This document shows, in pieces, positions 468-38,106 of a DNA stretch of 64,000 nucleotides. A program made the translations under genes and the position numbers. Each line of letters opens with the position of its first letter. Position 1 is the stretch's first letter. This DNA is from an uncultured Gammaproteobacteria bacterium. Its GTDB lineage: Bacteria > Patescibacteriota > Patescibacteriia > UBA11705 > JABHMO01. The stretch spans positions 60,742 to 124,741 of the forward strand of contig CAZPBK010000001.1 of the NCBI GenBank assembly GCA_964584985.1, read 5' to 3'. The notes beneath the pieces are model-generated. The model ran no database searches, had not been told where the DNA came from, and worked only from the letters and a program-made list of their open reading frames with translations.

Positions 468-1664
468 TTAAATATGTGTTAGTATTTTTTTTAAAAGTTC
501 TTGACGATGGTGATGAATCAGCTTTTTCAGGTCTTGCTTTTTTACCCATTTTATTTTTTCCGCCTCAAAACTTTTTTTCAGATCCATTTGTCTATTGGTT
601 CCCAGGTATTGAATTAAATAAGCTGATTGTTTTTGGCCTTTATAGCCCTTTATTTTTTTAGCATAATCCGGCCAGTCATAGCGATGCTGTTCAGGAATTT
701 TTTTGATTATTTTAAACAATTTTTTTGAAGCACCCACTTCTTCACTTAATTCTCGGATAACGCCTTTTTCCGGCTTTTCTCCAAGCTCTATTCCGCCTTG
801 AGGAAATTGCCAGTGGTTTTTAAAACGAGGATTTTTTATTATTAAAAATTTATTGTTTTGATTTTTAACAACCGCCACCGCGTTTTGTCTATATTTTTTG
901 TTCATCCTTTCTTTCCAACGGTGACAAGTCAAAAGAAAATCAACTGTGGCGTTTTTTACTCGCTTTAAGCGTTTGGGCTCTTGATAAAAACGATAAAGCC
1001 ATTCCAGCCCTGATTTACTCAAAGCTTTTGGCGCCCTTTTTATTTGGCCGGTTAAAAAATCAAAACTGCCACCAACAGCCAAAGCAATCTTTGTTTTTGG
1101 TAGCCAAGAAAGATACTTATCAATCCAGATTTCTTGCTCTGGCGCACCCAAGGTGGTGAAAATAATATCCGGTTGAAAATTATTGATTTTGTTTAATAAA
1201 TTATCGCAATTATTCAAATCTTCGGGATTAAGCTTTTCCGCTTGAAAATTGATTTGCGGATATTTTTCTTGGAACATCTTTTTCAAATCCGATTTGCCGG
1301 TCAAGGAATTATGACGCAAAACAATAAAAATTTTAATTTTTTGATACTGATATTTTTCTAAAAGTCTGCGGGTCAAATCAGCTCCGGTCACTCGGTTTTT
1401 TAGTTTTTCTCCTAAAATTTTGGCTCCCAATTTTAAACCTATACCGTCGGGAAGGTTAAAGTCAGCTCTTTCCAAAACATGAAGATAATTTTCATTTTTT
1501 TCCGCTTTTAAACAAATCTCCGGGTTTGGAGTGTAAAGCCTTAACTGTTTATTTTTGATTAAAGCGTTATCTATTTTTTCCACAAAAAAATTCATCGGTC
1601 GATCGTTAACCGGTACTCCGAGGATAATGGCTTTGTTTTTAAATTCCGGTACTCTACTTGACAT
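468..1664 (-). CDS. WecB/TagA/CpsF-family glycosyltransferase fused to a C-terminal NUDIX hydrolase domain
   Basis: N-terminal ~250 aa carry TagA/WecG-like motifs (TPNPE, LPDGIGL, LGAPEQEIW, GGSFDF). The C-terminus has a canonical Nudix box: GGIELGEKPEKGVIRELSEEVGA (GX5EX7REUXEEXGU). Confidence 0.7.
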   Translation of the reverse strand: MSSRVPEFKNKAIILGVPVNDRPMNFFVEKIDNALIKNKQLRLYTPNPEICLKAEKNENYLHVLERADFNLPDGIGLKLGAKILGEKLKNRVTGADLTRRLLEKYQYQKIKIFIVLRHNSLTGKSDLKKMFQEKYPQINFQAEKLNPEDLNNCDNLLNKINNFQPDIIFTTLGAPEQEIWIDKYLSWLPKTKIALAVGGSFDFLTGQIKRAPKALSKSGLEWLYRFYQEPKRLKRVKNATVDFLLTCHRWKERMNKKYRQNAVAVVKNQNNKFLIIKNPRFKNHWQFPQGGIELGEKPEKGVIRELSEEVGASKKLFKIIKKIPEQHRYDWPDYAKKIKGYKGQKQSAYLIQYLGTNRQMDLKKSFEAEKIKWVKKQDLKKLIHHHRQELLKKILTHI

Positions 1665-1700: not shown

Positions 1701-2270
1701 TTAATTTTCAGCTAATTGTTTTTCCTGTTTTTTTATTTTAACTTTCATTAATGTTTTATAGATCGGTCCCTCGGGAGTTAAAGTACTTAACATTAAATCA
1801 ATAGTTTTAACTGTGAATTTTAATGGCTTTATTTTTATATTCAGTTCTAGTTTTTTAATTGGTTTTTTTATTCGACCAAGGGTAATATGTGCTGAAAATC
1901 GGCGTTGGTCAATAGGCAAATCCAATTTTTTAAATATTTCATTTACCGCGTTTTTTATGGGGTGCAATTGCTCTTGTTCATCAGTCAAACTTATTTTAAT
2001 CACTTTTGGATAATATTGAGCGGTAAAAACTTCCAATTTTTCCAGTTTTAATTTAAATTGTTTAAAATCCAAATGACTTTCCATGGTTTGTTTAAGGATT
2101 TCCAGTTTTTCGGGTTGTAAATCTTTTATAAAGCCCAAAGTCAGATGTAAATTTCTCGGATTCACCCACTTGATCGGTTTATCCGCTGATTGAATTTTTA
2201 ATTCTTGGATGACCTTTTGCAAATAAGCTTTGGTGTCCAATGGTAGATTAATGGCTATAAAAAGTCTCAT
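1701..2270 (-). CDS. thpR: RNA 2',3'-cyclic phosphodiesterase / 2'-5' RNA ligase family (2H phosphoesterase, ThpR/LigT)
   Basis: Two H-x-T-x motifs typical of the 2H fold: NLHLTLGF and SAHITLGR. Length 189 aa is typical of LigT. Confidence 0.7.
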   Translation of the reverse strand: MRLFIAINLPLDTKAYLQKVIQELKIQSADKPIKWVNPRNLHLTLGFIKDLQPEKLEILKQTMESHLDFKQFKLKLEKLEVFTAQYYPKVIKISLTDEQEQLHPIKNAVNEIFKKLDLPIDQRRFSAHITLGRIKKPIKKLELNIKIKPLKFTVKTIDLMLSTLTPEGPIYKTLMKVKIKKQEKQLAEN

Positions 2271-2316: not shown

Positions 2317-3204
2317 ATGGCGTTTATGAAAAAATCACAATTTTATAAAAAATTAGAAAATAATTTTGTACAATGTCGCACCTGTTGTCATTATTGTCGG
2401 TTGGCACCAGGGGAAATCGGTCAATGCCAAGTCAGAAAAAATATCAAGGGCGATTTATATAGTTTGGTTTACGGCAAAATAATTGCCCAAGGTGTGGATC
2501 CGATTGAGAAAAAACCCTTATATGAATTTTTGCCGGGCACTTTTACTTATTCTTTGGCCACTCCGGGCTGTAATTTTTCGTGTTTACATTGCCAAAACGC
2601 GGATATTGCCAAGCCGGTTGAAATTGAAAATTTTATCAATGAATTTGCCGCCAAAGAATTTAAACCGCAAGAAATAATTGATCAGGCGTTGCAGTATAAT
2701 TGCCAAAGTATTTCTTATACTTATACCGAACCTACGGTTTTTGCTGATTTTGCTTTGGACATTATGAAACAGGCTAAAAAAGCCAATTTAAAAAATGTTT
2801 GGGTTAGCAATGGTTATTTTTCTAATGAGGTTTTTACCGCTATTAAACCATATTTAGATGCTGTAAATATAGATCTTAAAACTTTTAATGACAAAACTTA
2901 TCAAAAAATCTGTGGTGCTCATCTTGAACCGGTTAAGGAAAATATTAAAAAAGCGGTTAAAGCAAAGGTTCACACCGAAGTGACCACCCTATTGATTCCC
3001 GAAGTAAACGATCGATCCGAAGAAATAAAAAGAATGGCTGAATTTTTATACTCTGTTGATCCGAAAATTGTTTGGCATATTAGCGCTTTTTACCCGGCTT
3101 ATAAAATGATTGATAAACCTCCAACCGATATTAAAACCTTAAAAAAAATCAAAAAAATCGCTAAAAAATGCGGCTTGACCAAAACCTTTTTGGGGAATAT
3201 ATAA
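2317..3204 (+). CDS. amrS: AmmeMemoRadiSam-system radical SAM enzyme (AmrS-like)
   Basis: N-terminal Cys cluster CRTCCHYC...C, then the radical-SAM CxxxCxxC motif in GCNFSCLHCQN. Length ~295 aa. Resembles PflA-like activases of the AmrS family. Confidence 0.65.
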   Translation: MAFMKKSQFYKKLENNFVQCRTCCHYCRLAPGEIGQCQVRKNIKGDLYSLVYGKIIAQGVDPIEKKPLYEFLPGTFTYSLATPGCNFSCLHCQNADIAKPVEIENFINEFAAKEFKPQEIIDQALQYNCQSISYTYTEPTVFADFALDIMKQAKKANLKNVWVSNGYFSNEVFTAIKPYLDAVNIDLKTFNDKTYQKICGAHLEPVKENIKKAVKAKVHTEVTTLLIPEVNDRSEEIKRMAEFLYSVDPKIVWHISAFYPAYKMIDKPPTDIKTLKKIKKIAKKCGLTKTFLGNI

Positions 3205-6005: not shown

Positions 6006-7382
6006 ATGAAAAAAACGGGTTTAAGCCTAATTATTTTTGTGTTATTATTCAATCTTTGGTTGCCAAGTTCAGCTTTGGCTTTAAGTTTTGATAATGCTTA
6101 CATCGTCAGTGATTCGGCCTTAACCGACTATCAAAGTATGAGCCTGGAACAGGTTCGGTCTTTTTTAATGAAAAAAAACAGTGCTTTGGCCGATTACCGG
6201 GTTTCAATTGAACCGGGAAAGGTAAAATCAGCGGCTGAAATCATCTGGGATTCTGCGCAAAAATACCGGGTTAATCCCAAGTTTTTACTGGTTATGTTAC
6301 AAAAAGAGCAGAGTTTGATTGAGGATCCTTCGCCCACTCAAAAACAGCTTGATTGGGCCATGGGATATGGAGTTTGCGATTCTTGTGATCCGGACGATAC
6401 TTCACTGATAATTTTCAAAGGTTTTGCCCGACAAGTAGATCGAGCGGCTTGGCGCCAGCGTTGGTATATTAAAAATAGCGATCTTTCTTGGCTTAGGCAA
6501 AAAGGACAAACCTATAATATTGACGGACATAACATAAAAATAGTAAATCAAGCTACGGCCAATTTATATAATTATACTCCACATATTTACGGTAATTATT
6601 TGTTTTGGAAAATTTGGAATAAATGGTTTGAGCAAAAATATCCTAACGGTTCACTGCTCCAGGCCAAAGGACAAGCCGGAGTATGGCTGATCGAAAACGG
6701 ACAAAAACGGCCTTTTTACAATAAGGGCGCATTATTGTCCAGATATGACATTAACGATATTGTTTTGGTTGAACATCGCGAATTGGATAAATATGAGCCG
6801 GGACCGCCGATCAAGTTTGCTAATTTTTCTTTATTGCAAACAGAATTGGGCGATGTTTATCTTTTGGTTAATGATACTTTACGAAGATTTGAAAGTGATA
6901 AGGTTTGGCGTACTTTGGGCTTTAACCCGGAAGAATTTGAAGAGCTTAACGCTTCTGATTTTAATCATTATAAAACCGGAGCGCTAATAACCTTAAAAGA
7001 AGCCTATCCGGCCGGGGCTCTTTTGCAAAATAATAAAACCGGTGGGGTTTATTTTGTTCAAAACGGTCAAAAAAAACCGATATTAAGTCGAGATATAATA
7101 AAACTTGATTATTCAGCTTACAGTTTAACCCAAGTCAGTCCCGAGGAGTTGGAAAATTTCACAACTAAAGAACCGGCCAGATTAAAAGATGGACACCTGG
7201 TAAAAACCGCTGATTCCCCCATTGTTTATGTGATTTCCGAAGGTAAAAAAAGGCCCATTGCCACAGCCGATGTTTTTGAAAATTTGGGATATCAATGGCA
7301 AAATATCCAAACGGTTGAGACCAAGACTCTTGAAAATATAAAAAAAGGACCATACCTTGATTTGGAATTTAAAAAGCATTAA
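6006..7382 (+). CDS. Secreted protein with signal peptide and C-terminal tandem repeat modules; function unknown
   Basis: N-terminal hydrophobic signal MKKTGLSLIIFVLLFNLWLPSSALA. The C-terminal half contains at least three ~60-70-aa repeats marked by NGQKRPF / NGQKKPI / EGKKRPI. Confidence 0.5.
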   Translation: MKKTGLSLIIFVLLFNLWLPSSALALSFDNAYIVSDSALTDYQSMSLEQVRSFLMKKNSALADYRVSIEPGKVKSAAEIIWDSAQKYRVNPKFLLVMLQKEQSLIEDPSPTQKQLDWAMGYGVCDSCDPDDTSLIIFKGFARQVDRAAWRQRWYIKNSDLSWLRQKGQTYNIDGHNIKIVNQATANLYNYTPHIYGNYLFWKIWNKWFEQKYPNGSLLQAKGQAGVWLIENGQKRPFYNKGALLSRYDINDIVLVEHRELDKYEPGPPIKFANFSLLQTELGDVYLLVNDTLRRFESDKVWRTLGFNPEEFEELNASDFNHYKTGALITLKEAYPAGALLQNNKTGGVYFVQNGQKKPILSRDIIKLDYSAYSLTQVSPEELENFTTKEPARLKDGHLVKTADSPIVYVISEGKKRPIATADVFENLGYQWQNIQTVETKTLENIKKGPYLDLEFKKH

Positions 7383-7416: not shown

Positions 7417-8205
7417 ATGTTGGTATTTTCAGCAATTTGTCCTCATCCGCCCATTTTAATTCCCGGAATCGGCAAAGAAAATCTTTCCAAGATTGAAAAA
7501 ACCAAACAATCCATGGAAATGCTAAAAAAAGGTCTGGATCAAGCCAATCCTGATACAATTATTATAATTTCTCCGCATGGTGAAATAAACAGACACGCTT
7601 TTTCCATAAATACCAATCAAGAATACAGGGCGCGTTTTGAAAATTTTGGTGACTTTAAAACTGAATTGCACTTTAAGTCAGATTTAGAGTTTATAAACAC
7701 GCTAAAAGGATTGGACGAGGTAAACATGCCGATTCATTTGGTTTCAGAAAATAATCTTGATCATGGTTCTTCAGTACCACTTTATTATTTGAATAATCAG
7801 AATGAGAAAGCCAGAATTGTCCCCATCACCTATAGTTTTTTGGGTTATGATAAGCATCTGCAATTTGGAAGATTGATCAAAGAAGCGGCATCGTCATTAA
7901 ATAAAAAATATGCCATTATTGCTTCGGGAGATCTTTCTCACCGATTAACCAAACAAGCTCCGGCCGGTTTTTCACCCAAAGCTAAAGAATTTGATAAAAA
8001 ACTTATTCAGCTCTTAAAGAAAAAAAATACAGAAGGAATTTTGAATCTGGATAAAACCATGATTGAAGAAGCGGCTGAATGTGGTTTGCGTTCAATCCTG
8101 ATTCTGCTGGGAGCCATTGCCAATATGAATTATGAGTTTGAAGTACTGAGTTATGAATCGCCTTTTGGCGTTGGTTATCTGGTTGGTGAATTCAAATTTT
8201 CTTAG
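7417..8205 (+). CDS. amrB: Memo-like protein (AmmeMemoRadiSam system protein B-like, class III extradiol dioxygenase fold)
   Basis: Blockwise similarity to Memo1: ICPHPP vs APHAGY, IIISPHGE vs ILGPSHH, LDHGSSVPLYYL vs EHSIEMHLPY, IIASGDLSHRL vs VVSSDFCHWG, CGLRSILILL vs CGRHPIGVLL. Recalled from memory of Memo1, not aligned. Confidence 0.55.
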   Translation: MLVFSAICPHPPILIPGIGKENLSKIEKTKQSMEMLKKGLDQANPDTIIIISPHGEINRHAFSINTNQEYRARFENFGDFKTELHFKSDLEFINTLKGLDEVNMPIHLVSENNLDHGSSVPLYYLNNQNEKARIVPITYSFLGYDKHLQFGRLIKEAASSLNKKYAIIASGDLSHRLTKQAPAGFSPKAKEFDKKLIQLLKKKNTEGILNLDKTMIEEAAECGLRSILILLGAIANMNYEFEVLSYESPFGVGYLVGEFKFS

Positions 8206-10675: not shown

Positions 10676-11606
10676 AAATACTGAAATTGTTTTTTTTGGT
10701 TCCGATCCATTTTCAGTGCCGGTCTTCAAGAAGCTTATAAAAAAATATAATGTTAAAGCTTTAGTTTGTGAATCGGATAAACCTTCCGGAAGAAACCAAA
10801 AAATCACCGCTCCGCCAACAAAGAAAATTGCGGAAAATAACAATATTCCAATATTTCAACCTCAAAGCGTTAAAAAAGATAATATTTTTTTTGAAAAAAT
10901 AAAAGCTTTGAATTGTGATTTGTTTATTGTGGCCGCTTTTGGTCAAATAATCCCCTTAAATATTTTGAATCTACCGCTCCACGGCAGTCTAAACATACAC
11001 CCATCACTTTTGCCAAAGTATCGTGGCGCTTCACCGATTAGACAAACCTTACTCAACGGAGATAAGAAAACAGGTATAACCATTATTCTAATGGATCAGG
11101 GAATGGATACGGGAGATATTGTGGCTCAAGAAGTCACCACCGTTAAAAAAAATGATAATTATATAACCTTATCCAAGAAACTGGCTGATCAATCAGCTGA
11201 ATTTTGCATTCGGATTATCCCCGGATATTTGAACGGGGAATTTACTTTATTAACGCAAGATGACAATCAAGCAACCTACACAAAAAAGATTAAAAAAAAT
11301 GACGGCTTGATAAATTGGAAACAATCCGCTAAAGATATAAAAAATCAGTTAAAAGCCTTTATTGATTGGCCGGGAACTTACACTAAATTTAAACAAAAAA
11401 AACTTGACTTGATTACAGCCAAGGTTAGCGACTTTGATAAAAATATAAAAACCGGTCAAGTTTTTAAATGCAAGAACAATATTTTTGTTCAATGCGGTCA
11501 AGGCAGTTTAAAACTGGAAACGGTTAAATTGGAAGGTAAAAAAGTAACAGATATTAAAAATTTTATAAATGGGCATCAGGATTTTATTGGTTCCGTGTTA
11601 GGCTGA
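10653..11606 (+). CDS. fmt: Methionyl-tRNA formyltransferase
   Basis: Formyltransferase core NIHPSLLPKYRGASPI. The N-terminal domain fits (VFFGSDPFSVPV). Overlaps the end of def as is usual for this pair. Confidence 0.9.
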   Translation: MEKTTKNKNTEIVFFGSDPFSVPVFKKLIKKYNVKALVCESDKPSGRNQKITAPPTKKIAENNNIPIFQPQSVKKDNIFFEKIKALNCDLFIVAAFGQIIPLNILNLPLHGSLNIHPSLLPKYRGASPIRQTLLNGDKKTGITIILMDQGMDTGDIVAQEVTTVKKNDNYITLSKKLADQSAEFCIRIIPGYLNGEFTLLTQDDNQATYTKKIKKNDGLINWKQSAKDIKNQLKAFIDWPGTYTKFKQKKLDLITAKVSDFDKNIKTGQVFKCKNNIFVQCGQGSLKLETVKLEGKKVTDIKNFINGHQDFIGSVLG

Positions 11607-13099
11607 ACATCAAGTAAAATTATAATTAAGATCAATAAATAACCAATCCCCAAGGGATGATTTAAATACGGAGTAAAACCGTTAACCAAAAGCAAACTTA
11701 AAAGTCCCAGCAAACTGCCGATCAACAAAGTCTTTTCCAAGGACTGTTTTTTTTTGGCCGAATCATAGATTTTTCTAATTATTTGCCAAATAAAAACCAG
11801 ATAAACCAACAAACCGAACAAACCGATTTTTAACAAAATATCCAAATATCCCCATTCAAAAGCATAAGTGGTATACCAACCTTGAGGATTGTCTTTGGTT
11901 AAAATTCTTGGATCTTGACTTTTATAAGTAATAGATCTTCCCCATCCCGAACCGACTATTGGGTGTTTACTAATGGCTCGCCCCAATTCCGGTAATTGAC
12001 TCCAGCGACTGGAAACCGCTTCGTCGGAAACAGAAAACCGGTCTTTAATCATGGAACCTTTTTCCGTAGAACTTTGATAAAAAGGCAAAGGTATATTGAT
12101 TATTGCGGACACAAGACCGTAAGACACCACTCCGATCAACAGTAAGGTCATAAATAAAAGCGCTGTTTGGCGCAAATTTTTTCTATAATAAAAAATCAAA
12201 GTTAAGAAATAAACAATAATTCCTCCGATCAAACCGACCCAAAAACTTCTAGACAAACTGGTTAAAATAGTAGAGCCCAACAAAATAATCATAATCAGCA
12301 AACAAATATTTTGTTTGCTTTTTAAATTAAATTTATTTTTAAGACTAAAATATGTCCAAAAAATAAAAAAACCGATCAAAGCAAATATTTGAGCCTGAGA
12401 AAAAATACGAAAAAAACCGGAATTAAGCAGAGTAAATTCGCCCCAAAGGGTATCACGCCCCCAAGTGTAAAGAAAACCCATAATTGGAAATTTATGGGCA
12501 AAAATAAATAAAAATATCATTGTTTTAAGGCTTATAGCAACAAGTCCGGCTGAAAAAATCGGCCAAAAATCAGAAAAAAACTTATTATTGGTGTAAACCG
12601 AAACAAAGGGAAAAATATATAAAAAATAAAGCCAGGCGTTAAAATCCAAAAATATGTTTTTTAAACCATTATTTTGCCAAAAGGCTTGAATTATTCCCCA
12701 AGTTAAAACTATGGCCAAAATGGTAAGGTGTTTTATTTGAAAAACTTGTTTAATTTCTTTAATAAGAGTTTTTTGCCAAACTGATTTTATTAGCCAAGCC
12801 AGCATTATTGCGGAAAAAATGCCGATTCTGATAGAAACTTGAAAATCGGCAATATCAATGGAAAACAAATGACCTTGAGAGCCGATTATTAATTCAACCA
12901 AAGCGGTGTATATTCCCCATTTAAGTTTATATAAGCTTAAACCAAAAACCAAAACAAAAATAATTAAATAAAAAAACAAGCTTAAATCAAAGGCTATTTT
13001 GGTCCAGATAACAAAAAATGAGGCTAATTCCGCCAAAAGAATAAACCATAAAGTATGTTTGAATTTTGTGCCGAAAAAATTAAGTTGTCTTGGCTTCAT
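11576..13099 (-). CDS. Polytopic membrane protein, O-antigen-ligase/Wzy-like (tentative)
   Basis: 507 aa with ≥10 predicted TM helices. It sits next to glycosyltransferase genes. The family assignment is inference from topology only. Confidence 0.35.
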   Translation of the reverse strand: MKPRQLNFFGTKFKHTLWFILLAELASFFVIWTKIAFDLSLFFYLIIFVLVFGLSLYKLKWGIYTALVELIIGSQGHLFSIDIADFQVSIRIGIFSAIMLAWLIKSVWQKTLIKEIKQVFQIKHLTILAIVLTWGIIQAFWQNNGLKNIFLDFNAWLYFLYIFPFVSVYTNNKFFSDFWPIFSAGLVAISLKTMIFLFIFAHKFPIMGFLYTWGRDTLWGEFTLLNSGFFRIFSQAQIFALIGFFIFWTYFSLKNKFNLKSKQNICLLIMIILLGSTILTSLSRSFWVGLIGGIIVYFLTLIFYYRKNLRQTALLFMTLLLIGVVSYGLVSAIINIPLPFYQSSTEKGSMIKDRFSVSDEAVSSRWSQLPELGRAISKHPIVGSGWGRSITYKSQDPRILTKDNPQGWYTTYAFEWGYLDILLKIGLFGLLVYLVFIWQIIRKIYDSAKKKQSLEKTLLIGSLLGLLSLLLVNGFTPYLNHPLGIGYLLILIIILLDVQPNTEPIKS

Positions 13100-13101
13100 A
13101 A

Positions 13102-13548
13102 TTAATCCTTCCGATACATCCGATAAAACGGATTTTGCGAATTATTGCTAATAAAACAATAATATTGTAAAAACGGTCTTAAACTGTTTAACACATTGAT
13201 CCTTTTATCGGCAAATTGTTTGAAGCCCAAATCAATAATTAAATCATTAATTTCAATCCAATAATGTCTTCCCGGATAATTAGCAAAACTCCCCTGTTCC
13301 ACTTGAGCTTGATCTGAATAATTTTTTAATATCTTATGGTTTAAATAATGTGTTAACCGTGGAGCATGTTGAGAGGCCAAACCGGAAACATGAAAAACCT
13401 CCAAAGGCTTTCCCTTAATTATAGCTTTTTGACGATTTTCCATTACATACTCCTCCACCGCATTGATGATGCTTTCCAAGCGTTGGTTTTTTTGCGTAAG
13501 GTCTATTAACGGTTCACTTTTTATTTGATAATCTCCAACAATAATCAT
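13102..13548 (-). CDS. Hypothetical protein
   Basis: 148-aa ORF tightly packed between neighbouring CDS. No motif recognised. Confidence 0.4.
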   Translation of the reverse strand: MIIVGDYQIKSEPLIDLTQKNQRLESIINAVEEYVMENRQKAIIKGKPLEVFHVSGLASQHAPRLTHYLNHKILKNYSDQAQVEQGSFANYPGRHYWIEINDLIIDLGFKQFADKRINVLNSLRPFLQYYCFISNNSQNPFYRMYRKD

Positions 13549-13552
13549 AAGA

Positions 13553-14446
13553 TCATTTTATTTTAGATTGGCTTTTGGGTTTTATACGAAATATTTGCGC
13601 AAAAAGGGTCAATAAATAACTTATTGGTTGCATAATTAGCAAAAACCAATAAGTTGCCCGAGATTTGTTTTTTTTGAAATAGGTTAACATGCCTTTGTTA
13701 AAACGCTTTTGTTTTTTCAAGCTTTTCACTTGGGCAAAACTTTTTCCTTCATAATGAATCACTTGAGTAATGGGCAAATAAACAATTTCCGCACCCGTTT
13801 TCCTAACATCCAAACAAAGTTGAAGATCTTCCCACCATAAAGGATAATCTTCGTCCCAACCGTTTATCTCATTCATTAAAGTGGCTCTGGTAAAAATAAA
13901 AGCGCCCATAACCTGGTGAACATATTTTTTTTGATTGTAATCAAAGTTTTTTTGCAGATACCTTTCTAAGGGGGGTAAAAAACTGAAAATATGATGTAAT
14001 TTCAACAATATAAGCAACTGATCGCAAAATCCGGGGTCTTTTTTTACATTGGGTTGAGTGGTTTTGTCGCCAAAAAGCAAACGGCAAGTACAAATACCCA
14101 CATTTGGCGTTTTTTCCATAAATTCATACAATTTCAAAAAACTGTTTTCCATGATTTCCATATCCGGATTCATATATAGTTGGTATTTCCCAATGGACGC
14201 GCGAGCACCTTGATTATTGGCTTTGGCAAAACCGGCATTAAAATCGTTGGTTATAATTTTTAACTGCTTTTTTTCAATCCATTGGCCATAGTTTTTCTTT
14301 ATATTTTCCGCTGTCCCATCCTTGGAGTCATTATCCACAATTATTACCTCGTAATTAAGCCCTTCGGTATACTGAAAAATGGAATCCAAAAGCCGAGCAA
14401 GCAAATCTCGCACATTCCAGCTGACTATTATAATACTTAGATCCAT
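13553..14446 (-). CDS. Glycosyltransferase family 2
   Basis: N-terminal GT-A signature: LSIIIVSWN, VIIVDNDSKDGT (DxD-type) and a later acidic motif. Confidence 0.8.
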   Translation of the reverse strand: MDLSIIIVSWNVRDLLARLLDSIFQYTEGLNYEVIIVDNDSKDGTAENIKKNYGQWIEKKQLKIITNDFNAGFAKANNQGARASIGKYQLYMNPDMEIMENSFLKLYEFMEKTPNVGICTCRLLFGDKTTQPNVKKDPGFCDQLLILLKLHHIFSFLPPLERYLQKNFDYNQKKYVHQVMGAFIFTRATLMNEINGWDEDYPLWWEDLQLCLDVRKTGAEIVYLPITQVIHYEGKSFAQVKSLKKQKRFNKGMLTYFKKNKSRATYWFLLIMQPISYLLTLFAQIFRIKPKSQSKIK

Positions 14447-14490
14447 ATTTCAGTTTCTAAAATAATTTATTTTATTTTTTCGTTCGTTTA

Positions 14491-15705
14491 TCAAAGATTT
14501 AACTTTTTAAATAAATAATCAGTCATTGTATCCACTCTTGATTTCCAACTATGAGCCTTAATCGCATTTTTTCGTTTGAATTGTTTCTCCGGGCTATCTT
14601 CCGTCAGGGCTTTATTTATCAGATTGGAAAAAGCTTTCGGCTCTTCAGCCAAATAAATCAAGTCCTTAAACATTTCCGTTCCGGCGCTTGGCGTAGAAAC
14701 CAACGGCCGACCACAGGCCAAATATTCATACAACTTCATAGGATTATTGGATTTAGTAAATTCGCTGATTTTATGAGGCATAATCGCCACATCAAAGCGA
14801 TTCATATAGGCCGGAGCTACTTTATAATCAATGCGTCCAAAAGTATGCACATTTTTATATTTATGCATTTTTTTATGAAACATTGGTTTGACAATTGGCC
14901 AAATCGGTCCACATATCGCGATTTCCTTGTCCTGATGATCCTCGGCCACTTTGGCCAGTAAATCCAAATCCAAACGACTTTCTATTGTGCCGAAATAACC
15001 AATAATCTTTTTATCAAAATCATCCAACTCGGTTTTTTGTTTAATGGCTGACGGACGGTTAAAAAATTCAAAATCCACGCCATTGGGAATCCAGTGGACA
15101 TCTTTGGTACGCGACATTTCAGCGTAAAAATCCTTTAACTCTTGAGAAACAGTAAAAATAAGGTCAGCCTTATCCGCAATTTTGAAATAATTGCGTTTTA
15201 ATCTTTTTGGGGGCATCATTTTTGGATAAGTGGGATGCTCCATCCAGTTGTCAACCGTATCAAAAACAAACAGTTTTTCATTCAGCTTGCCTAAAAATTC
15301 GGTAAACATGGGATTGTATGACCAAAAAACAACATTTTTTAAATTAAGAATTTTTTCCACGCGTCGCAATTCCTTGCCCACCTTATTCATGGAAAAAATA
15401 GAATCAATCGTGGTGTAAGCGTAAATTTTATCAGAACGCTGATAACAAGCCGAGGTTAAATCTCCGTAAACCATTTCCGCGCTTTTGATTTCCCACAAAA
15501 TATTTTTAACATAATGTGAAGCCGCTTTTTTCCAACCACGCGGTAAAAAATCCACGCCGACTATTTTGTTTATTTTATTTTCTTTGACCAGATTATGCAA
15601 AACATGGTAATTGCGATTTACCACGCCATGATCCCAATCCCAAAAACTGGACATGTTAAACATGACAATGTCTATTTTGGCTGAAGGATCAGTTGTTTTT
15701 TCCAT
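14491..15705 (-). CDS. Glycosyltransferase family 1 (GT4-like, GT-B fold)
   Basis: 404 aa. The C-terminal half has a GT1-like pattern (FGRIDYKVAPAYM...E...PMKLYEYLACGRPLVS). Confidence 0.65.
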   Translation of the reverse strand: MEKTTDPSAKIDIVMFNMSSFWDWDHGVVNRNYHVLHNLVKENKINKIVGVDFLPRGWKKAASHYVKNILWEIKSAEMVYGDLTSACYQRSDKIYAYTTIDSIFSMNKVGKELRRVEKILNLKNVVFWSYNPMFTEFLGKLNEKLFVFDTVDNWMEHPTYPKMMPPKRLKRNYFKIADKADLIFTVSQELKDFYAEMSRTKDVHWIPNGVDFEFFNRPSAIKQKTELDDFDKKIIGYFGTIESRLDLDLLAKVAEDHQDKEIAICGPIWPIVKPMFHKKMHKYKNVHTFGRIDYKVAPAYMNRFDVAIMPHKISEFTKSNNPMKLYEYLACGRPLVSTPSAGTEMFKDLIYLAEEPKAFSNLINKALTEDSPEKQFKRKNAIKAHSWKSRVDTMTDYLFKKLNL

Positions 15706-15709: not shown

Positions 15710-16645
15710 TTATTTTAGATAAATCTTGCTTTTTAGAAAAAAGTCGCGGTCACTAAAATCTTCTTCCGAATCCTTGTTTTCCTGAATTATACGATCAGCG
15801 GTGCTAACTTTGGCTGAGGTATTATCAATATGAGCCAGAGCCAAAGATTCTCTGCTCATTGGCAAAACCGGACTGCCAAATTCTTGTCGTCCATGATGAG
15901 AAAGAAGCATGTTTAACAATTTGGCTCTAAGCTCGCGGGGAAAATTTTGCTCCATTTTTTTATCAACCCATATGGCGCCAAGTGAAATATGCCCAATCAA
16001 ATTGCCTTCCAAGGTGCGATAAATGCAAGTATCAAATCCCAGTTCTTGCATTTTTCCCACATCATGCAAAAGAACCCCGGTTATCAAAAGATCCTTATCC
16101 AACTCCGGATAAGATTCAAATAAACTATGCGCCAGATTAAGCATTTCCACCACATGTTCCATTAAACCGCCAAGATAAGCATGATGAATCTTTTCCGCGC
16201 CCGGTGCTTTTTTAAATTTTTCCACAAAATCTTTATCTCCAAAAAAAGAATTTAAAAGTCTTTTTAAATCAGGATGTTTTATTTGCTCCACATTGGCTTG
16301 TACGGTTTGCCATAAATCATCAATGTTTTTTTCACTGGCCGGTAAAAAAGACTGAAGATCAAAATCTCGAGATTGCTCCAAAAAACTTATATCCAATTGA
16401 GGTTTCCCACGAAATTCCTTAACCTCGGCTGAAAGACTAACGACTTGACCTTTTTCCGGTTCTTGACAATTACTCATATTATCTTCCCATATTTTACCGG
16501 TTATTTCTCCGGTTTTGTCACTTAAAATAAGATCAAAATAATCCTTGCCCTGAACGGTTTTACCACATTTAACCCCTTTAATCGCAAATTCTTGGCCGGT
16601 TATTTTTTCATTTATGGCCAATTCGTTGATGAATTTGTTTTTCAT
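15710..16645 (-). CDS. yhaM: YhaM-like 3'-5' exoribonuclease (OB-fold plus HD phosphohydrolase domain)
   Basis: N-terminal OB-fold region (GQEFAIKGVKCGKTVQGKDYFDLILSDKTGEI). HD domain motifs HHAYLGGLMEHV and LLHDVGK. Confidence 0.65.
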   Translation of the reverse strand: MKNKFINELAINEKITGQEFAIKGVKCGKTVQGKDYFDLILSDKTGEITGKIWEDNMSNCQEPEKGQVVSLSAEVKEFRGKPQLDISFLEQSRDFDLQSFLPASEKNIDDLWQTVQANVEQIKHPDLKRLLNSFFGDKDFVEKFKKAPGAEKIHHAYLGGLMEHVVEMLNLAHSLFESYPELDKDLLITGVLLHDVGKMQELGFDTCIYRTLEGNLIGHISLGAIWVDKKMEQNFPRELRAKLLNMLLSHHGRQEFGSPVLPMSRESLALAHIDNTSAKVSTADRIIQENKDSEEDFSDRDFFLKSKIYLK

Positions 16646-17196
16646 AATTTTTGTTCTGAAAATTTAATGGTTTTATAAGTAAAAAATTCCGTACTTTTAT
16701 TTTTAAAGCAATTAAATTCCAAACCGGCTTTTTGACATAAAGAAGCAAAAAATTGTTTTTTGTTCTCAAAACTTTTCCAAACTTCCGGCAAGTAAGTGGC
16801 TTGATTTTGCTTGTTTTTAATAATCACTCCTTCTCCCGGCTTAATTTGGTCATATTTAACTTTTTTTGGTTCGGTTAAAACGGAAATTTCAATGGTAATG
16901 TTATTTAATTCTTCAGGCTTTACCGGAGGAAAACGATAATCTTTTATGGCCGCGGACTGCGTATTTTCAGCCACTGCCCGCCAAAGCGATAAAATCGGTT
17001 CAATCTGTCCAATACAGCCTCTGACTCGGTTGTTTTTCATTAAAGTGATAAAAACCCCGCTTTTTTGCTTAAAATTTTCATCAGGGCAATCGGGAAGAGC
17101 AAATCCCCGGCTTTCAACGGCCGCTTTTAAAGCTTTTTCAGCCAAAGCTGAAAGTTGTTTTTTTTGCTGATCGTTTAATTGCATATTCTTATTCAA
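16642..17196 (-). CDS. amrA: AMMECR1-domain protein (AmmeMemoRadiSam system protein A-like)
   Basis: 184 aa with the characteristic RGCIG motif (NNRVRGCIGQIEP) and the overall AMMECR1 length and pattern. Confidence 0.75.
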   Translation of the reverse strand: MNKNMQLNDQQKKQLSALAEKALKAAVESRGFALPDCPDENFKQKSGVFITLMKNNRVRGCIGQIEPILSLWRAVAENTQSAAIKDYRFPPVKPEELNNITIEISVLTEPKKVKYDQIKPGEGVIIKNKQNQATYLPEVWKSFENKKQFFASLCQKAGLEFNCFKNKSTEFFTYKTIKFSEQKL

Positions 17197-23810: not shown

Positions 23811-26189
23811 TTAAAACTTGTTTTTATGTTCTTTAAATACCGCAAAGCCAGCTAAAACAATACTTGTGACACTCAACAAAACTCCGAGATATAAATAATT
23901 TTGTGAATTATTATATATTGTTAATTTAATTTTTTTATTTCCCTCATCTTCTAAAGGACCAATGTACCAAGCATTAGCATAACCATTTGCTCTGATGTGT
24001 TGATCATCATAAAGAGGTTTTTTAAACATAAATTTCAAATCTGAGATTTTATATTTAAAAGCTGAATGTTTTCCTTCTCCGATGTTAGCGTGTACCCTTT
24101 CGAGCTCTTCTATGTTTGAAAAATTATTTGTGTAAAGCTTCCATCCATTATTGAAATTTTCCAAAAAAACCAAATAAAAGGAATTCTTAAAATTTGAGAT
24201 CTCAATATCATAATGGGTAGGATTTATTTTTTTAAATTTAATATAAGGTGAGAAAGATTTATTCTCATTAACAAAACAGGAGGTGGGATCTGAAGATATA
24301 ATCTCTTTCTCTGGCGTAAAGGCGGATGAAGTTATATATTTAGAAAGTTCCTTTATGTTGGAAGCGTTATTAATCTTTTGACAGGATGGAACATTGTAAA
24401 TTTTGGGTAAAAACTCATCGGCAAGATATATATCATTACCTCCTATCTTTTTATGCAATGAAATATTTTTGATGTTTTGCAACTTTTCTTTTACAAACTC
24501 GGGAGAATCTTTGCCATTTAAATAGTCATATATAAGGTCATTTCTTTGTACTATGTACTTGATATTTAAAATTGATGTTAGCTTGGTTATCTTTAAATAT
24601 TCTTGATCAATTGATTGATAAAGTAAATTAACAAGTTCATCTCTTAATCTCTCAGCATTATTTAAACTTCTCTCGTAATAGTTGACTAAAAAAGCCTTAC
24701 TGGAAAGATATGGCAACAAATGAGAATTAAGAATCATCCCCCAACTGTAAACCGCCCTATCGGTGTTTGGCAAAAGCAGTCCTCTAAATTCTTGAGGGTC
24801 ATTATTCAAAAAAGTGGCTGTTTTATTAACATACTCGGGAAAAGGATAGTTAATATGTGCTGACTGAAGCTTTGTTTTATCAGTTCTATGAGGATACATC
24901 TCTCCGTTCCAAAATGGTTTTAGTTGGATCAGAACCAATATTAGAAAAACGCCAAGGAGGAGATATTTTAAAACTCTTTTTTTGTATTTTTCAAAAAGTT
25001 TTAAAGCATAAACAATTGATGTTGTAAACATTATAGAAAAACACAAGGTCAAAACATTCATCGACTTTTGCCATGGGGACCGGAACAACCAAAATCCGGG
25101 AATATTTTCAATGGCCCAACTGTACAAATTAAATTTTTGAGCTATGGCGAAAAAAGCAAACAGTATAAATATTATTTTGAAAAACAGTACTTTTTTATTT
25201 TTATTAAAAATTAAAAAACTTAAAAACCCAATAAAGCTCAATAAATAACTGAGAAATATATATAAAGGGTTATTAAAATATTTTTGTATTGACGGATAAA
25301 AAAGTTCCCCATTTTTACCGGCTGACAGCCCTTTAGCGCCCATTAGTCGTAGATTTTCATGAAGCACTAGAGACTTACCCTTGCTCCATTTTATACTCAA
25401 CTCTTTTGCTTCGTGCAGCTTGTCTTGATTGTTTATTGCCGTAGACAAGGTTTCATGCAAAAACGGTAAAAAACACCACAAATTGAAAAAAACAAAAAAC
25501 AATAGACCCATGGCCATTTTTTTTATAAACTCTTTTTTAAAGTTGTGGGTGATTATGTAAAAAGCAAGATAGGCTAATAAAACTGAATAAGTGGACGCTA
25601 TAATGGAAATATTTGATAAACCGATGTTTAAGGGAATTGTAAATAATGAAAAAATCACTATGTTTTTAAGACAAAATTCACTTTCCAACAATATCATTAA
25701 ACGAGCCAATACAATTGGTAAAAATAAAAAAGGTAATATTTTTATAAAATGCAACCCATGCCAAATCATGAATTGATAAAATGAACAAATATAAATAATT
25801 GATCCAATTATATTTGGAAAATATTTTTTCCGAAAAATATGATCCAATAAATAATAAATTGAAGTGAAACCGGAAGCCAAAAGTAAAGCAAAAATTATTT
25901 TTTCAGTAATTATGAGCGATCCTGTTAATAACAAAATTAAATAAAAAGGAATGAACAAAAGTGTTTGAGAAAACTTTCTTCCATAAGGGACTCCCCCGGA
26001 TCTAATATCCCATAAAAATGTGGTTTTATTGATAAAATTTTTTCCGTAAGAAATCCTACCGTCTCCGTAGTTTATTATACTCCCCTGATTAAACCAAAAG
26101 TTTGAAACAATTAAAAAAAATATTATTAATGACAACAAAAAGATCACTAAAACATGATTTTTTTTACAAAAACTCGCAAGGCGTTTCAT
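23811..26189 (-). CDS. Large polytopic membrane protein with C-terminal extracytoplasmic domain (YfhO-like GT-C candidate)
   Basis: 792 aa with ~14 TM segments in the first ~450 aa, a soluble C-terminal domain, then a final TM. This architecture resembles YfhO-type polyprenyl-phosphate-sugar-dependent glycosyltransferases. The family assignment is inference. Confidence 0.4.
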   Translation of the reverse strand: MKRLASFCKKNHVLVIFLLSLIIFFLIVSNFWFNQGSIINYGDGRISYGKNFINKTTFLWDIRSGGVPYGRKFSQTLLFIPFYLILLLTGSLIITEKIIFALLLASGFTSIYYLLDHIFRKKYFPNIIGSIIYICSFYQFMIWHGLHFIKILPFLFLPIVLARLMILLESEFCLKNIVIFSLFTIPLNIGLSNISIIASTYSVLLAYLAFYIITHNFKKEFIKKMAMGLLFFVFFNLWCFLPFLHETLSTAINNQDKLHEAKELSIKWSKGKSLVLHENLRLMGAKGLSAGKNGELFYPSIQKYFNNPLYIFLSYLLSFIGFLSFLIFNKNKKVLFFKIIFILFAFFAIAQKFNLYSWAIENIPGFWLFRSPWQKSMNVLTLCFSIMFTTSIVYALKLFEKYKKRVLKYLLLGVFLILVLIQLKPFWNGEMYPHRTDKTKLQSAHINYPFPEYVNKTATFLNNDPQEFRGLLLPNTDRAVYSWGMILNSHLLPYLSSKAFLVNYYERSLNNAERLRDELVNLLYQSIDQEYLKITKLTSILNIKYIVQRNDLIYDYLNGKDSPEFVKEKLQNIKNISLHKKIGGNDIYLADEFLPKIYNVPSCQKINNASNIKELSKYITSSAFTPEKEIISSDPTSCFVNENKSFSPYIKFKKINPTHYDIEISNFKNSFYLVFLENFNNGWKLYTNNFSNIEELERVHANIGEGKHSAFKYKISDLKFMFKKPLYDDQHIRANGYANAWYIGPLEDEGNKKIKLTIYNNSQNYLYLGVLLSVTSIVLAGFAVFKEHKNKF

Positions 26190-26192
26190 AAA

Positions 26193-27518
26193 TTACTTTT
26201 GTGTTTTTATTTTTTTTATAACCTCTAAAGCCTTTTTTTCTAAAATAAGACTTCCGTTTATGTGCGTTTTTATTTTATTTTTCTCGTTTGGATCATTTTT
26301 CAAATCATAGATAAAAAAATCTTTTACTTCACCTTTGGTTGTTATCTTGGCAATGTATTTTTCATACTCATTCCTAACACTGATTAAAAAAATATTTTTA
26401 TCCTCAATTGACAGGCTAATTATATCACGGTTTTTTTCTTCAACAGAATCTTCTGTTAATAAATCCACCAAACTTTTTCCATCATATTCATTGGCTCCAC
26501 TTCCATTAATCAAATGATCCAAGGTCGGGCATATATCCACCGTACTTACATTTTCAGAGACAATTTTTCTAGAAATTCCGGGACCAACCCAGATAAAAGG
26601 GATTTTTATCAATTCTTCATACAAGTCACTTGTATGTTCAACTTTGCCGTGCTCCAAAAAAGCTTCGCCATGATCCGCCGTAAAGATAAAATGTGTATTG
26701 TTTTTATTTATTCCTTTTTTTTCTAAATCGTGTATAAATTTTTTTATTATATTATTTGATAAATATAAATATTGATTTATGTATAATTTTTTCAATACAC
26801 CTATCTGCTTATTTGAAAAATTTTCCAGAGGCTTAAAGAAAAATAATGAACGGAGAAAAAACCACTTTAGTCTATTGGTAAACTTATTGTGAGAGCTATA
26901 TGGTCCGTGGACATCCATAAAATGCATCCATAAGAAAAAAGGATCCCCTTGTTCTCTTTTTTCTATTACATTTAAGGCGGTTTTTGTCAGTTTATCAGAG
27001 TTTGTATGGCTTAAGTCCAAAAAATAAAAACTAATTAATTTTAAAACCCCCCTTAGAAATTTTAGTTTTTTGGATCGCCTTAATAATCTGATTAATTTCC
27101 CTCTAAACATTTTTTTCTTTGATCTTGTTTGAAAATCATGATAATAACAAAAACCCCTTTCATAGCCAAGACCCTTTATCAGAAAAGGATTAAAATCATT
27201 TAAACCAACTGTGTGGTATCCCTTGTCTTTTAATTTTTCTGCTATTGTTTTTCTTTGATTTGATAATTTAACCGGATGCCAGCTGGTTCCCGGCAAAGGA
27301 TCCCTTATCTCGTTTTCATAAACGCCTGGATATTGACCACTCATGATACTTGGCAAGGAATAGGGTGTTATCGGAGCATTGGAAAATGAGTTTATAAATA
27401 AAGTCCCTTGTTTTGAAAACTCACTTATAAAATCATTATTATTTCTTTCATTATATGCCTTTAAGATATCTGATCGTAAGGCATCAACGGTAATTAAAAT
27501 TATATTTGGTTTTTCCAT
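26193..27518 (-). CDS. Alkaline-phosphatase-superfamily (sulfatase-like) protein lacking the formylglycine Cys/Ser
   Basis: N-terminal metal-binding block ILITVDALRSD. The sulfatase-signature region reads ITPYSLPSIMSGQYP, with Ile at the Cys/Ser (FGly) position and no Arg. Distal motif TADHGEAF. Confidence 0.6.
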   Translation of the reverse strand: MEKPNIILITVDALRSDILKAYNERNNNDFISEFSKQGTLFINSFSNAPITPYSLPSIMSGQYPGVYENEIRDPLPGTSWHPVKLSNQRKTIAEKLKDKGYHTVGLNDFNPFLIKGLGYERGFCYYHDFQTRSKKKMFRGKLIRLLRRSKKLKFLRGVLKLISFYFLDLSHTNSDKLTKTALNVIEKREQGDPFFLWMHFMDVHGPYSSHNKFTNRLKWFFLRSLFFFKPLENFSNKQIGVLKKLYINQYLYLSNNIIKKFIHDLEKKGINKNNTHFIFTADHGEAFLEHGKVEHTSDLYEELIKIPFIWVGPGISRKIVSENVSTVDICPTLDHLINGSGANEYDGKSLVDLLTEDSVEEKNRDIISLSIEDKNIFLISVRNEYEKYIAKITTKGEVKDFFIYDLKNDPNEKNKIKTHINGSLILEKKALEVIKKIKTQK

Positions 27519-27519
27519 A

Positions 27520-28359
27520 TTATTTTACAATTTTTAATAAGGGGACTTTTCTTAGTTCAGGTGCTGAGAGATCGTAATAGTGCAAGTAACTATTATATTC
27601 TCCAAGCAATTCACCGTGGTCTGAAGTAATAAATATAGTTATATTTTGCGGTAGATTATTGATAAGCTTTTCCACATATTTCAAAGCTAGTTTCAAATTG
27701 CCTTCATAGGCTTTTTTAAAATCCTCCTTTGAAAGTTGTTTTTTTCTGATCTTTGAAATAACAGCCTCGTCATTCCCTTCAATGGGATTTTTACTTGAAG
27801 TGATGATACTCGGTTCACCAATCCATGGTCCGTGTGGTTGCATGAACCAAAAAATATTTTTTTTCGAACTATCATAATGCTTTAAAGATTCCTTGTAAAG
27901 TATCTCGGGATGAACAGTATTTAACTTTTTATTCCAACCATAATCCCAAACGTCAATAATATAATCTTTTTTAAAATGGTCTGTTGCTTTATATCCCAAA
28001 ATCTCAATTCCTTGTGAATTTATATGAGGATTTGTAGAAAGTAATTTTATATTTGGATATTTTTTATTAAAGGTTTTTTTGAACCAACCAATTGTGCCAC
28101 TGGCGGGAGAATGAAGAGCTTTTAATTCTCCTTTTAAATGTTTTTTATAGTTTTTTTTAAAATAATCATATCTACAAGCATCCAAAACAATTAGAACATC
28201 CCACTTCTCCTCATTTAAATAGTTCAATTGGCACGAGCCTGTTTTCTTATTAATTAATTTATACAATAAACCAAGAAACAAAAACCTAAAACTACATTTG
28301 CTACGTTTTTGTAACATTTGTTTTAATATAAAAATTAATCTTTTTATGGTTTTTATCAT
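27520..28359 (-). CDS. Second alkaline-phosphatase-superfamily / sulfatase-like protein
   Basis: Motifs LIVLDACRYDYF, TSDHGELLGE and QPHGPW. Confidence 0.5.
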   Translation of the reverse strand: MIKTIKRLIFILKQMLQKRSKCSFRFLFLGLLYKLINKKTGSCQLNYLNEEKWDVLIVLDACRYDYFKKNYKKHLKGELKALHSPASGTIGWFKKTFNKKYPNIKLLSTNPHINSQGIEILGYKATDHFKKDYIIDVWDYGWNKKLNTVHPEILYKESLKHYDSSKKNIFWFMQPHGPWIGEPSIITSSKNPIEGNDEAVISKIRKKQLSKEDFKKAYEGNLKLALKYVEKLINNLPQNITIFITSDHGELLGEYNSYLHYYDLSAPELRKVPLLKIVK

Positions 28360-32119: not shown

Positions 32120-32120
32120 A

Positions 32121-34389: not shown

Positions 34390-34395
34390 AAATTA

Positions 34396-38105: not shown

Positions 38106-38106
38106 A

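Follow-up and report, generated by a model that had tools for sequence, protein, structure and literature searches.

Glycosyltransferases of the TagA/TarA type and Nudix hydrolases of the RppH type are known as separate enzymes, and here we describe a gene that encodes both in one protein. It lies on the minus strand at positions 468–1664 of a 64,000-nucleotide stretch with 34% G+C (hereafter the window; contig CAZPBK010000001.1, positions 60,742 to 124,741). Published work on T. italicus TagA identified D65 as the catalytic base and found T37, D65 and R221 to be experimentally important. In that enzyme, R214, R221 and R224 of the C-terminal tail reach into the active site, and a non-polar patch (I203, L209, L212 and I216) makes contact with the membrane, on which the tail folds and the active monomer is formed. 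E. coli RppH (NudH/YgdP) binds 5'-phosphates through R8, N10, R27, Q37, Y77, Q95 and K140 and metal through E53, E57, Q37 and E120, and it holds the second RNA base between R27 and V137/F139, with S32 (PMC7144940). RppH is also bound and stimulated by E. coli DapF, an enzyme of the lysine/cell-wall pathway with which it has no common substrate (PMC6061855).

The fused protein resembles each of these systems and departs from each. Compared with the TagA/TarA structures of T. italicus (5wb4, 5wfg, 7mpk and 7n41), T37, D65, R83, R214, R221 and R224 all have conserved counterparts, and the membrane patch has a mostly hydrophobic one; in the fusion, however, the tail goes on as a helix into a 140-residue Nudix domain, and the gene lies outside a teichoic-acid cluster. 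Over residues 258–398 the protein is ~27% identical to E. coli RppH and to plant and bacterial diadenosine tetraphosphate (Ap4A) hydrolases (4s2y, 6vck, 7sp3 and 1f3y), with which it has in common the Nudix box, the YRxN, WQxPQGG and GQxQ motifs and a tyrosine 17 residues past the box. E. coli RppH, in contrast, is free-standing rather than covalently tied to a glycosyltransferase, and its second-nucleotide cleft is not shared. The DapF–RppH complex (5ygu, 6d13, 6d1q and 6d1v) likewise couples an RppH-type Nudix enzyme to an enzyme of envelope precursors, as a functional analogy only: in E. coli the two proteins associate non-covalently and the partner of RppH, an epimerase, belongs to lysine and peptidoglycan synthesis, whereas here the coupling is covalent or by adjacent genes and the partner is a GT26 enzyme. 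NadM-Nudix (2qjt) also has a Nudix domain fused to an enzyme of nucleotide-linked metabolism, but the partner domain, the domain order and the Nudix subfamily (ADP-ribose type in NadM-Nudix) all differ, and the superposition is poor.

We propose that the protein is a bifunctional unit in which a membrane-activated GT26 transferase is rigidly joined to an RppH/NudH-type pyrophosphohydrolase, with the TagA module serving as membrane anchor and possibly as regulator; we would put the probability of this reading at roughly 0.5. The proposal builds on the domain identities, the conservation of catalytic residues, the distribution of the fusion, its natural split forms and a confident single-body model, and from these we infer what class of substrates the Nudix half acts on and what purpose the coupling serves. 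A literature search found no publication describing a Nudix plus WecG/TagA architecture, and a review of the Nudix clan mentions no fusion to a glycosyltransferase, in keeping with the initial annotation, which knew of no described family with this architecture. The domains are ordinary and their conserved rigid combination is apparently undescribed. Database names cover the glycosyltransferase half only ('WecB/TagA/CpsF family glycosyltransferase', 'N-acetylglucosaminyldiphosphoundecaprenol N-acetyl-beta-D-mannosaminyltransferase' and 'Teichoic acid biosynthesis protein'), and because of this an enzyme of the RppH type, perhaps the principal one of these organisms, would be hidden from function-based surveys.

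Domain identities of the two halves

The initial annotation had read the gene as a single frame of 398 amino acids (aa) that couples a WecG/TagA-family transferase to a canonical Nudix box. This description holds, and the strand, which the annotation did not give, is minus. The features of the gene are as follows.

468..1664, minus strand: fused GT26–Nudix gene, one complete open reading frame (398 aa, ATG start, stop included)
924..1640, minus strand: GT26 module (WecB/TagA/CpsF, GT-E fold), residues 9–247, including catalytic T45, D73 and R91
897..1046, minus strand: TagA C-terminal tail, residues 207–256, with R225, R232, R235 and the hydrophobic patch L220, L223, Y227
897..977, minus strand: last tail helix, residues 230–256, continuing as the interdomain linker in the AlphaFold2 model
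471..893, minus strand: Nudix module, residues 258–398, of the RppH/Ap4A-hydrolase (NudH) subfamily by Pfam, NCBIfam, PDB and Foldseek matches
729..797, minus strand: Nudix box G290–A312 (GGIELGEKPEKGVIRELSEEVGA), read off the sequence

A Pfam search, one of the checks the annotation had proposed, matched both domains above cutoff: Glyco_tran_WecG (PF03808) at residues 67–235 (E = 3.1e-43; 147.9 bits against a cutoff of 27.4) and NUDIX (PF00293) at residues 258–390 (E = 1.6e-17; 64.2 bits against 21.1). The Nudix box consensus GX5EX7REUXEEXGU reads here as G290-GIELG-E296-KPEKGVI-R304-E305-L-S-E308-E309-V-G311-A312.

For the glycosyltransferase half, a PDB sequence search aligned T. italicus TagA (7mpk) over residues 14–237 (E = 1e-35, ~30% identity), and the NCBIfam TarA model NF041710 aligned over residues 9–247. 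The superfamily model TIGR00696 scored 127.1 bits against a cutoff of 69, which, as with PF03808, places the half in GT26. Foldseek comparison of the AlphaFold2 model with the TagA structures 7n41, 5wb4 and 5wfg gave template modelling (TM) scores of 0.85–0.89 relative to the target, with 7n41 and 5wb4 at 0.87–0.89, and root-mean-square deviations (rmsd) of 2.5–3.2 Å, so that a GT-E fold is predicted. The residues equivalent to those of T. italicus TagA are T45 (T37), D73 (D65), R91 (R83), R225 (R214), R232 (R221) and R235 (R224). For all residue counts, we used the 114 full-length proteins among the 120 best homologues listed from a database of 5.8 billion proteins. T45 is kept in 113 of the 114, and D73, R225, R232 and R235 are each invariant; T45, N47, E49 and D73 all stand at 99–100%. 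The membrane patch of TagA (I203, L209, L212 and I216) corresponds to A214, L220, L223 and Y227, three of the four being hydrophobic. The module thus looks, from these residues, like a complete, active, membrane-activated GT26 enzyme. By homology it would add a second sugar from a uridine diphosphate (UDP)-sugar to an undecaprenyl-PP-linked acceptor, releasing UDP.

Its exact activity is a separate matter. The equivalog models were all missed by a wide margin (TarA NF041710, 139.5 against a cutoff of 350 bits; WecG NF002980, 90.9 against 323; EpsA NF041872, 96.9 against 500). Because these scores fall far under the cutoffs and there is no TagO, MnaA or LCP gene nearby, we do not class the module as TarA or WecG. 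Of the earlier label 'UDP-ManNAc(A)-type transferase', the WecG/TagA family therefore stands, and the UDP-ManNAc(A) part is unproven.

The Nudix half is closest to the RppH/NudH branch, whose members act on RNA 5' ends and dinucleoside polyphosphates. In NCBIfam, five RppH models rank first (best NF001936, 96.8 bits), with MutT next. In PDB sequence searches the leading matches, at E ~ 1e-12, were to lupin Ap4A hydrolase (1f3y) and E. coli RppH; MutT, Aquifex Ap4A hydrolase and diphosphoinositol polyphosphate phosphohydrolases (DIPPs) came next. Foldseek placed E. coli RppH (6vck and 4s2y) first, with TM scores of 0.77–0.78 relative to the target, and then Ap4A/Ap6A hydrolases; RppH, Ap4A hydrolases and MutT were all matched at probability 1.00, which predicts the Nudix alpha/beta/alpha fold. 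The absence of such a fold in structure prediction, which the initial annotation had named as a finding that would count against it, was not observed.

Conservation in the Nudix half extends from the box to the ligand residues known from E. coli RppH. In the box, E305 and E309 are found in all 114 homologues, R304 in 112, E308 in 109 and E296 in 107. Among the equivalents of the 5'-phosphate ligands, R259 (R8), Q289 (Q37), Y329 (Y77) and Q344 (Q95) are invariant, N261 (N10) is kept in 113, and R387 (K140) is R in 107 and K in 3. Among those of the metal ligands, E305 (E53) and E309 (E57) are invariant and E367 (E120) is E in 103 and D in 11. Y329 is placed 17 residues past the Nudix box, and a tyrosine at this distance is reportedly a marker of Ap(n)A hydrolases.

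Nucleotide-sugar enzymes do not figure among the significant sequence matches of the Nudix half. The 21 NCBIfam matches at E ≤ 0.1 include no nucleotide-sugar Nudix family, the nearest being NudE, an 'ADP compounds hydrolase' model that scores 29 bits where its cutoff is 169, and the PDB sequence matches at E ≤ 1e-3 include no UDP-sugar, GDP-mannose or ADP-ribose Nudix structure. In Foldseek, a nicotinamide mononucleotide adenylyltransferase/ADP-ribose pyrophosphatase (2qjt) appears at rank 41 as a weak two-domain match (TM ~0.3, rmsd 16.6 Å). The best match by sequence and by predicted structure is thus the RppH/NudH branch and not the sugar-nucleotide branch.

Searched exhaustively with the Nudix half, 1.84 billion cluster representatives yielded 3,556 relatives at E ≤ 1e-3, of which we inspected the best 150. 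The TagA half is present in 45 of these, 81 are standalone (≤ 200 aa) and the other 24 are built differently. Among these 24, the architectures identified are tandem Nudix, NTPase_I-T–Nudix (two cases), Nudix–MazG, Nudix–S4–pseudouridine synthase, nucleotidyltransferase–Nudix, glyoxalase–Nudix and radical-SAM–Nudix; among the identified fusion partners in these 150 there is no glycosyltransferase other than the TagA half. Given these other partners, the associations of the subfamily are mainly with nucleoside triphosphate (NTP) and RNA chemistry. Ten proteins of the same RppH-like subfamily (P0126, P0135, P0141, P0148, P0154, P0176, P0224, P0236, P0264 and P0214) illustrate this variety: they have double or triple tandem Nudix domains or are joined to a Pol-beta-type nucleotidyltransferase, a radical-SAM domain, NTPase_I-T, MazG or S4 plus pseudouridine synthase. 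We know of no description of these architectures, though no literature search was aimed at them.

Distribution, split forms and predicted architecture of the fusion

The initial annotation had pointed to a sequencing error around residues 240–260, joining two genes, as something that would undo its reading, and several lines of evidence exclude this. The identical 398-aa protein is encoded by an independent Logan assembly of run SRR6056297. Both Pfam domains are present in all 120 listed homologues, which are ~390–410 aa long and range in identity from 60% down to ~35%. In a scan of GTDB with one genome per species we found 559 relatives, and in the best 80 loci, which were inspected, the match spans residues ~14–395. 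The junction itself is conserved (I236 95%, A239 100%, F243 97% and W250 90% of the 114 homologues). Broken or shortened versions do occur in a few metagenome-assembled genomes (MAGs), such as P0064 (258 aa) and the standalone Nudix protein P0127; the contig of the latter (L089) has 0.5x coverage and a ClpB gene in five pieces, and we rejected it as a third split form. An artefact of sequencing or assembly as the origin of the fusion can be practically dismissed.

The taxonomic distribution, which the annotation had also proposed to examine, is evidently confined to Patescibacteria (Candidate Phyla Radiation, CPR) in the best 80 GTDB loci. Informatively named records with the fusion are Kuenenbacteria, Falkowbacteria, Jacksonbacteria, Buchananbacteria, Uhrbacteria, Komeilibacteria, Parcubacteria and 'Patescibacteria group', and we take the named groups to be members of GTDB class ABY1. 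Twenty-seven loci (L006, L008, L011 and 24 others) carry the label 'uncultured Gammaproteobacteria bacterium', and 26 of the 27 have CPR synteny; the label looks like placeholder taxonomy. Two more loci (L038 and L064), with 25–27% G+C, are labelled 'Bacilli bacterium' and 'Methanosarcinaceae archaeon'. The Methanosarcinaceae-labelled locus has CPR synteny and 25% G+C, and the Bacilli-labelled one is a short contig of 27% G+C on which CorA is the sole visible neighbour of the fusion; both are probably mis-binned. A wider, non-CPR distribution was rejected on the synteny shared by the 'Methanosarcinaceae' and 26 of the 27 'Gammaproteobacteria' loci and on the low G+C of the two loci with other labels. 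On present evidence, the fusion is evidently limited to Patescibacteria. As a separate observation, one fused homologue of 528 aa (P0209) has low-complexity insertions in both halves, and its Nudix domain contains an internal segment (...GGCSSVVECLLPKQKIAGSSPVTRSRTPL...) that resembles a translated tRNA-like sequence; its origin may lie in an inserted element or in a chimeric assembly.

In two lineages the halves are encoded by separate, adjacent genes. The first is represented by a Falkowbacteria MAG (GCA_002773615.1, with the split seen on 12 contigs). There the syntenic position of the fusion gene is taken by a 247-aa WecG gene and a 148-aa Nudix gene, which lie in different frames with an AT-rich spacer of 47 nt between them; the TagA product ends ...PLTCLKHSKDRTISS at its stop codon, the Nudix product starts MIKKYRPNV, and the NCBI label of the latter is 'RNA pyrophosphohydrolase'. 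In an Uhrbacteria MAG (GCA_016206165.1), a 251-aa TagA gene and a 145-aa Nudix gene are separated by 75 nt and followed by gltX and an M23 peptidase gene. The Uhrbacteria spacer (L088:1973-2047) has four in-frame stops and a GC-rich, near-perfect hairpin or inverted repeat (GTCGAAGGATCTAC...GTAGATCCCTCGAC). It resembles a short palindromic element that has been inserted, and the fission may have come about through this insertion at the boundary between the domains. Both breaks fall precisely at the end of the linker helix, the catalytic motifs, order and adjacency of both modules are kept, and the downstream gltX and M23 genes are retained in both lineages. A rough neighbour-joining tree (short alignment, no support values) groups the 53 fused Nudix domains, without exception, with the split forms in a single clade of 70 leaves. 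This is consistent with a single ancient fusion followed by secondary fissions, and the natural split forms offer ready domain boundaries.

AlphaFold2, run on a 108-sequence alignment, gave a model with a predicted local distance difference test score (pLDDT) of 95.4 and a predicted TM score (pTM) of 0.89, in which both domains are confidently predicted to form one rigid body in a fixed arrangement. One helix (residues 230–256) leads from the TagA tail to the first Nudix strand (258–267). In the model, R232 and R235 lie near the start of this helix, and R259 and N261 begin three residues past its end; R235 and R259 are 24 residues apart, ~36 Å if the helix is straight. Confidence is lowest (78–85) at residues 211–240, equivalent to the mobile part of TagA.

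Proposed function and competing explanations

In the bifunctional unit that we propose, both modules would be complete and catalytically competent, and the GT26 part would be a peripheral-membrane module carrying out the second-sugar transfer described above. The substrates of the Nudix part would likely be nucleoside 5'-polyphosphate ends, namely 5'-di- or triphosphorylated RNA (5'-pp/ppp-RNA), dinucleoside polyphosphates (Np(n)N) or Np4-capped RNA, and possibly guanosine polyphosphates ((p)ppGpp) or nucleoside diphosphates (NDPs); UDP-sugars would be unlikely substrates. The last tail helix, which in TagA folds on the membrane with its arginines directed to the glycosyltransferase site, is predicted to pass directly into the Nudix strand with R259 and N261. 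The TagA module would bring the RppH-type enzyme to the membrane and be its permanent, DapF-like partner, with a possible modulating effect. Because a tail helix that folds only on the membrane and supplies arginines is continuous with the Nudix domain, one can go further and suppose that RppH-type activity is membrane-confined and allosterically gated by envelope-precursor flux across a whole class of Patescibacteria, as a covalent, independently evolved counterpart of DapF–RppH and its link from cell-wall metabolism to mRNA decay. In this view, the enzyme that deprotects the 5' ends of RNA or degrades Np(n)N alarmones would be part of the very transferase that commits lipid-linked envelope glycans to synthesis. 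We offer this extension tentatively, with the odds against it. Should the coupling prove to be regulatory, RppH would have ties to envelope synthesis in two independent systems, and this would suggest a general principle behind the still-unexplained DapF–RppH link.

Several points weigh against our proposal. All five RppH equivalog cutoffs are missed (the best, NF001936, by 96.8 against 118 bits), and so we call the Nudix half RppH-type or RppH-like rather than an RppH equivalog. The second-nucleotide cleft is not kept: the position of R27 is R in 55 of the 114 homologues, S32 is deleted, V137 is H in 87 and F139 is variable. The cleft may, in turn, be a feature of the E. coli enzyme that need not define the whole RppH/NudH branch. 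Nudix specificity is notoriously difficult to infer from sequence. The gene neighbourhood, a generic housekeeping block with both RNA- and cell-wall-related members, does not discriminate between the readings. Finally, fusion and conserved adjacency usually indicate a shared pathway, which would favour a substrate link to the glycosyltransferase reaction, for example via UDP.

The main rival reading takes up this last point and holds that the Nudix half turns UDP, the product and likely inhibitor of the transferase, into UMP and Pi, thereby pulling the lipid-linked step forward and recycling the uridine nucleotide in an organism whose nucleotide metabolism is minimal. The removal of the beta-phosphate from a 5'-diphosphate is the chemistry that RppH prefers. 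The fusion, the rigid predicted arrangement and the adjacency kept after fission suggest a shared pathway; the helix bearing R232 and R235, which bind the UDP phosphates, stops three residues ahead of R259 and N261; and the RNA-specific second-nucleotide cleft of E. coli RppH is not conserved. E. coli RppH itself has UDP-hydrolysing activity, attacking NDPs including UDP weakly at pH 7–7.5 and almost completely at pH 8 (PMC7144940). However, NDP hydrolysis is a slow side activity of RppH, and among the best 150 of the 3,556 relatives no other UDP-releasing glycosyltransferase is fused to the Nudix clade. Direct channelling is not implied either, because of the 24 helical residues between R235 and R259. 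We regard UDP removal as unlikely, though as a serious contender; if it does take place, it would be a new route for a bacterial glycosyltransferase out of product inhibition. A rather unlikely alternative is that the fusion is neutral or merely co-expressed, two unrelated housekeeping genes, neighbours in an ancestral operon, having been joined by loss of a stop codon, with independent modules that gain equal stoichiometry only. Fusions often accumulate in reduced genomes, the housekeeping neighbourhood is conserved, and fission forms are viable in two lineages; yet the linker is strongly conserved (A239, F243 and W250), the model is a single rigid body, the 53 fused domains share one clade with the fused state kept down to ~35% identity, and gene order and adjacency outlast both fissions.

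The initial annotation had suggested that the Nudix half hydrolyses the donor, UDP-ManNAc(A) or another UDP-sugar, for proofreading, recycling or control of a toxic pool. The partner does consume a UDP-sugar, the fusion and adjacency are conserved, and Nudix enzymes acting on UDP- and GDP-sugars exist according to the Nudix-clan review; the same review, however, lists UDP-glucose pyrophosphatase among the functions confined to a single clade. The significant sequence matches here are to RppH, Ap4A hydrolases and MutT rather than to any nucleotide-sugar hydrolase family or structure, the conserved residues are the 5'-polyphosphate binders of RppH, and the other fusion partners belong mainly to NTP and RNA chemistry. 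Destroying the donor beside the transferase would, moreover, be a futile cycle unless regulated. The suggestion is weakened rather than refuted by these observations, and we consider it improbable. More remote still is a rescue of the lipid carrier, in which the Nudix half would cleave the pyrophosphate of stalled undecaprenyl-PP-sugars and return undecaprenyl phosphate. Some Nudix enzymes do hydrolyse prenyl diphosphates, the model would put this one at the membrane beside an enzyme handling undecaprenyl-PP-N-acetylglucosamine (Und-PP-GlcNAc), and the many lipid-linked glycan genes of the window compete for the carrier. Against it, NCBIfam, PDB sequence and Foldseek searches gave no likeness to prenyl-diphosphate Nudix enzymes, and there is no precedent in the RppH clade.

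Gene neighbourhood and other genes of the window

We counted neighbouring genes over 82 related loci. In the window, the gene directly upstream of the fusion is the following.

1701..2270, minus strand: LigT/ThpR-type 2H phosphoesterase, separated from the fusion gene by a 36-nt gap (Pfam LigT_PEase, E = 4.5e-22)

Of the 82 loci, 22 have such a LigT/ThpR gene on the same strand no more than two genes upstream, apart from one outlier at four genes, and in 13 it adjoins the fusion gene directly. The window is one of these 13, and here the two genes may form one operon. LigT/ThpR belongs to the RNA 2',3'-cyclic phosphodiesterase family, so that an enzyme of RNA ends here adjoins an RppH-type domain. 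Downstream, gltX is found on the same strand in 70 loci, directly adjoining and often overlapping in 40, and an M23 peptidase gene follows in 62. ClpB stands divergently upstream in ~33, and XerC-like, FtsQ, CorA and YkuD genes recur less often. The housekeeping block thus has ClpB, Memo, PriA, Def and Fmt on one side and GltX and the M23 peptidase on the other. Glutamyl-tRNA synthetase (GluRS) requires tRNA for glutamate activation and is no producer of Ap4A, and we dropped the downstream gltX as an Ap4A source for the Nudix domain on these biochemical grounds.

Neither the 64-kb window nor the flanks of the 82 related loci contain a TagO/WecA, a MnaA/WecB epimerase, an LCP ligase or TagGH, and a teichoic-acid or enterobacterial common antigen context was rejected for both. 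Genes for lipid-linked glycans are abundant elsewhere in the window, including Wzy-like and Wzx-like proteins, many GT2 and GT4 enzymes and GT-C enzymes, and with them the GT26 step has plausible pathways to serve.

Three regions of the window account for many glycan genes. An apparent sulfated-glycan biosynthesis cluster occupies 23811–42187 on the minus strand. It encodes an AftD-like GT-C enzyme, two sulfatase-family proteins, two methyltransferases, three GT2 enzymes, a B12-radical-SAM enzyme, a UDP-glucose dehydrogenase, an NAD epimerase/dehydratase, a sulfotransferase, a Wzx-like flippase, a CysQ-like 3'-phosphoadenosine 5'-phosphate (PAP) phosphatase, a CysN–APS kinase fusion and CysD. 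A complete supply of 3'-phosphoadenosine 5'-phosphosulfate (PAPS) beside a sulfotransferase and a flippase is unusual in a reduced genome. Two further regions concern glycan assembly. The one at 46381–56594 (minus strand) encodes a pair each of GT4 and GT2 enzymes, together with a radical SAM/SPASM protein, an epimerase and a PMT_2/STT3-like GT-C enzyme (54894–56594); in the one at 11576–15705, genes for GT2 and GT4 enzymes flank or accompany that of a Wzy_C/O-antigen-ligase-like protein (11576–13099).

A standalone LigD 3'-phosphoesterase domain protein of 149 aa (E = 7.5e-38) is encoded at 45312–45761 (minus strand), and no ligase or polymerase domain to go with it was found among the scanned open reading frames of the window. 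The AmmeMemoRadiSam components (radical SAM, Memo/LigB and AMMECR1) lie at 2317–3204, 7417–8205 and 16642–17196, scattered over 15 kb rather than in one operon; two of them, radical SAM and Memo, are conserved near the fusion gene at many related loci. At 6006–7382 (plus strand), a 458-aa protein has no Pfam match and has relatives with a signal-peptide-like N-terminus, and its gene is conserved between ClpB and Memo in ~28–30 related CPR loci.

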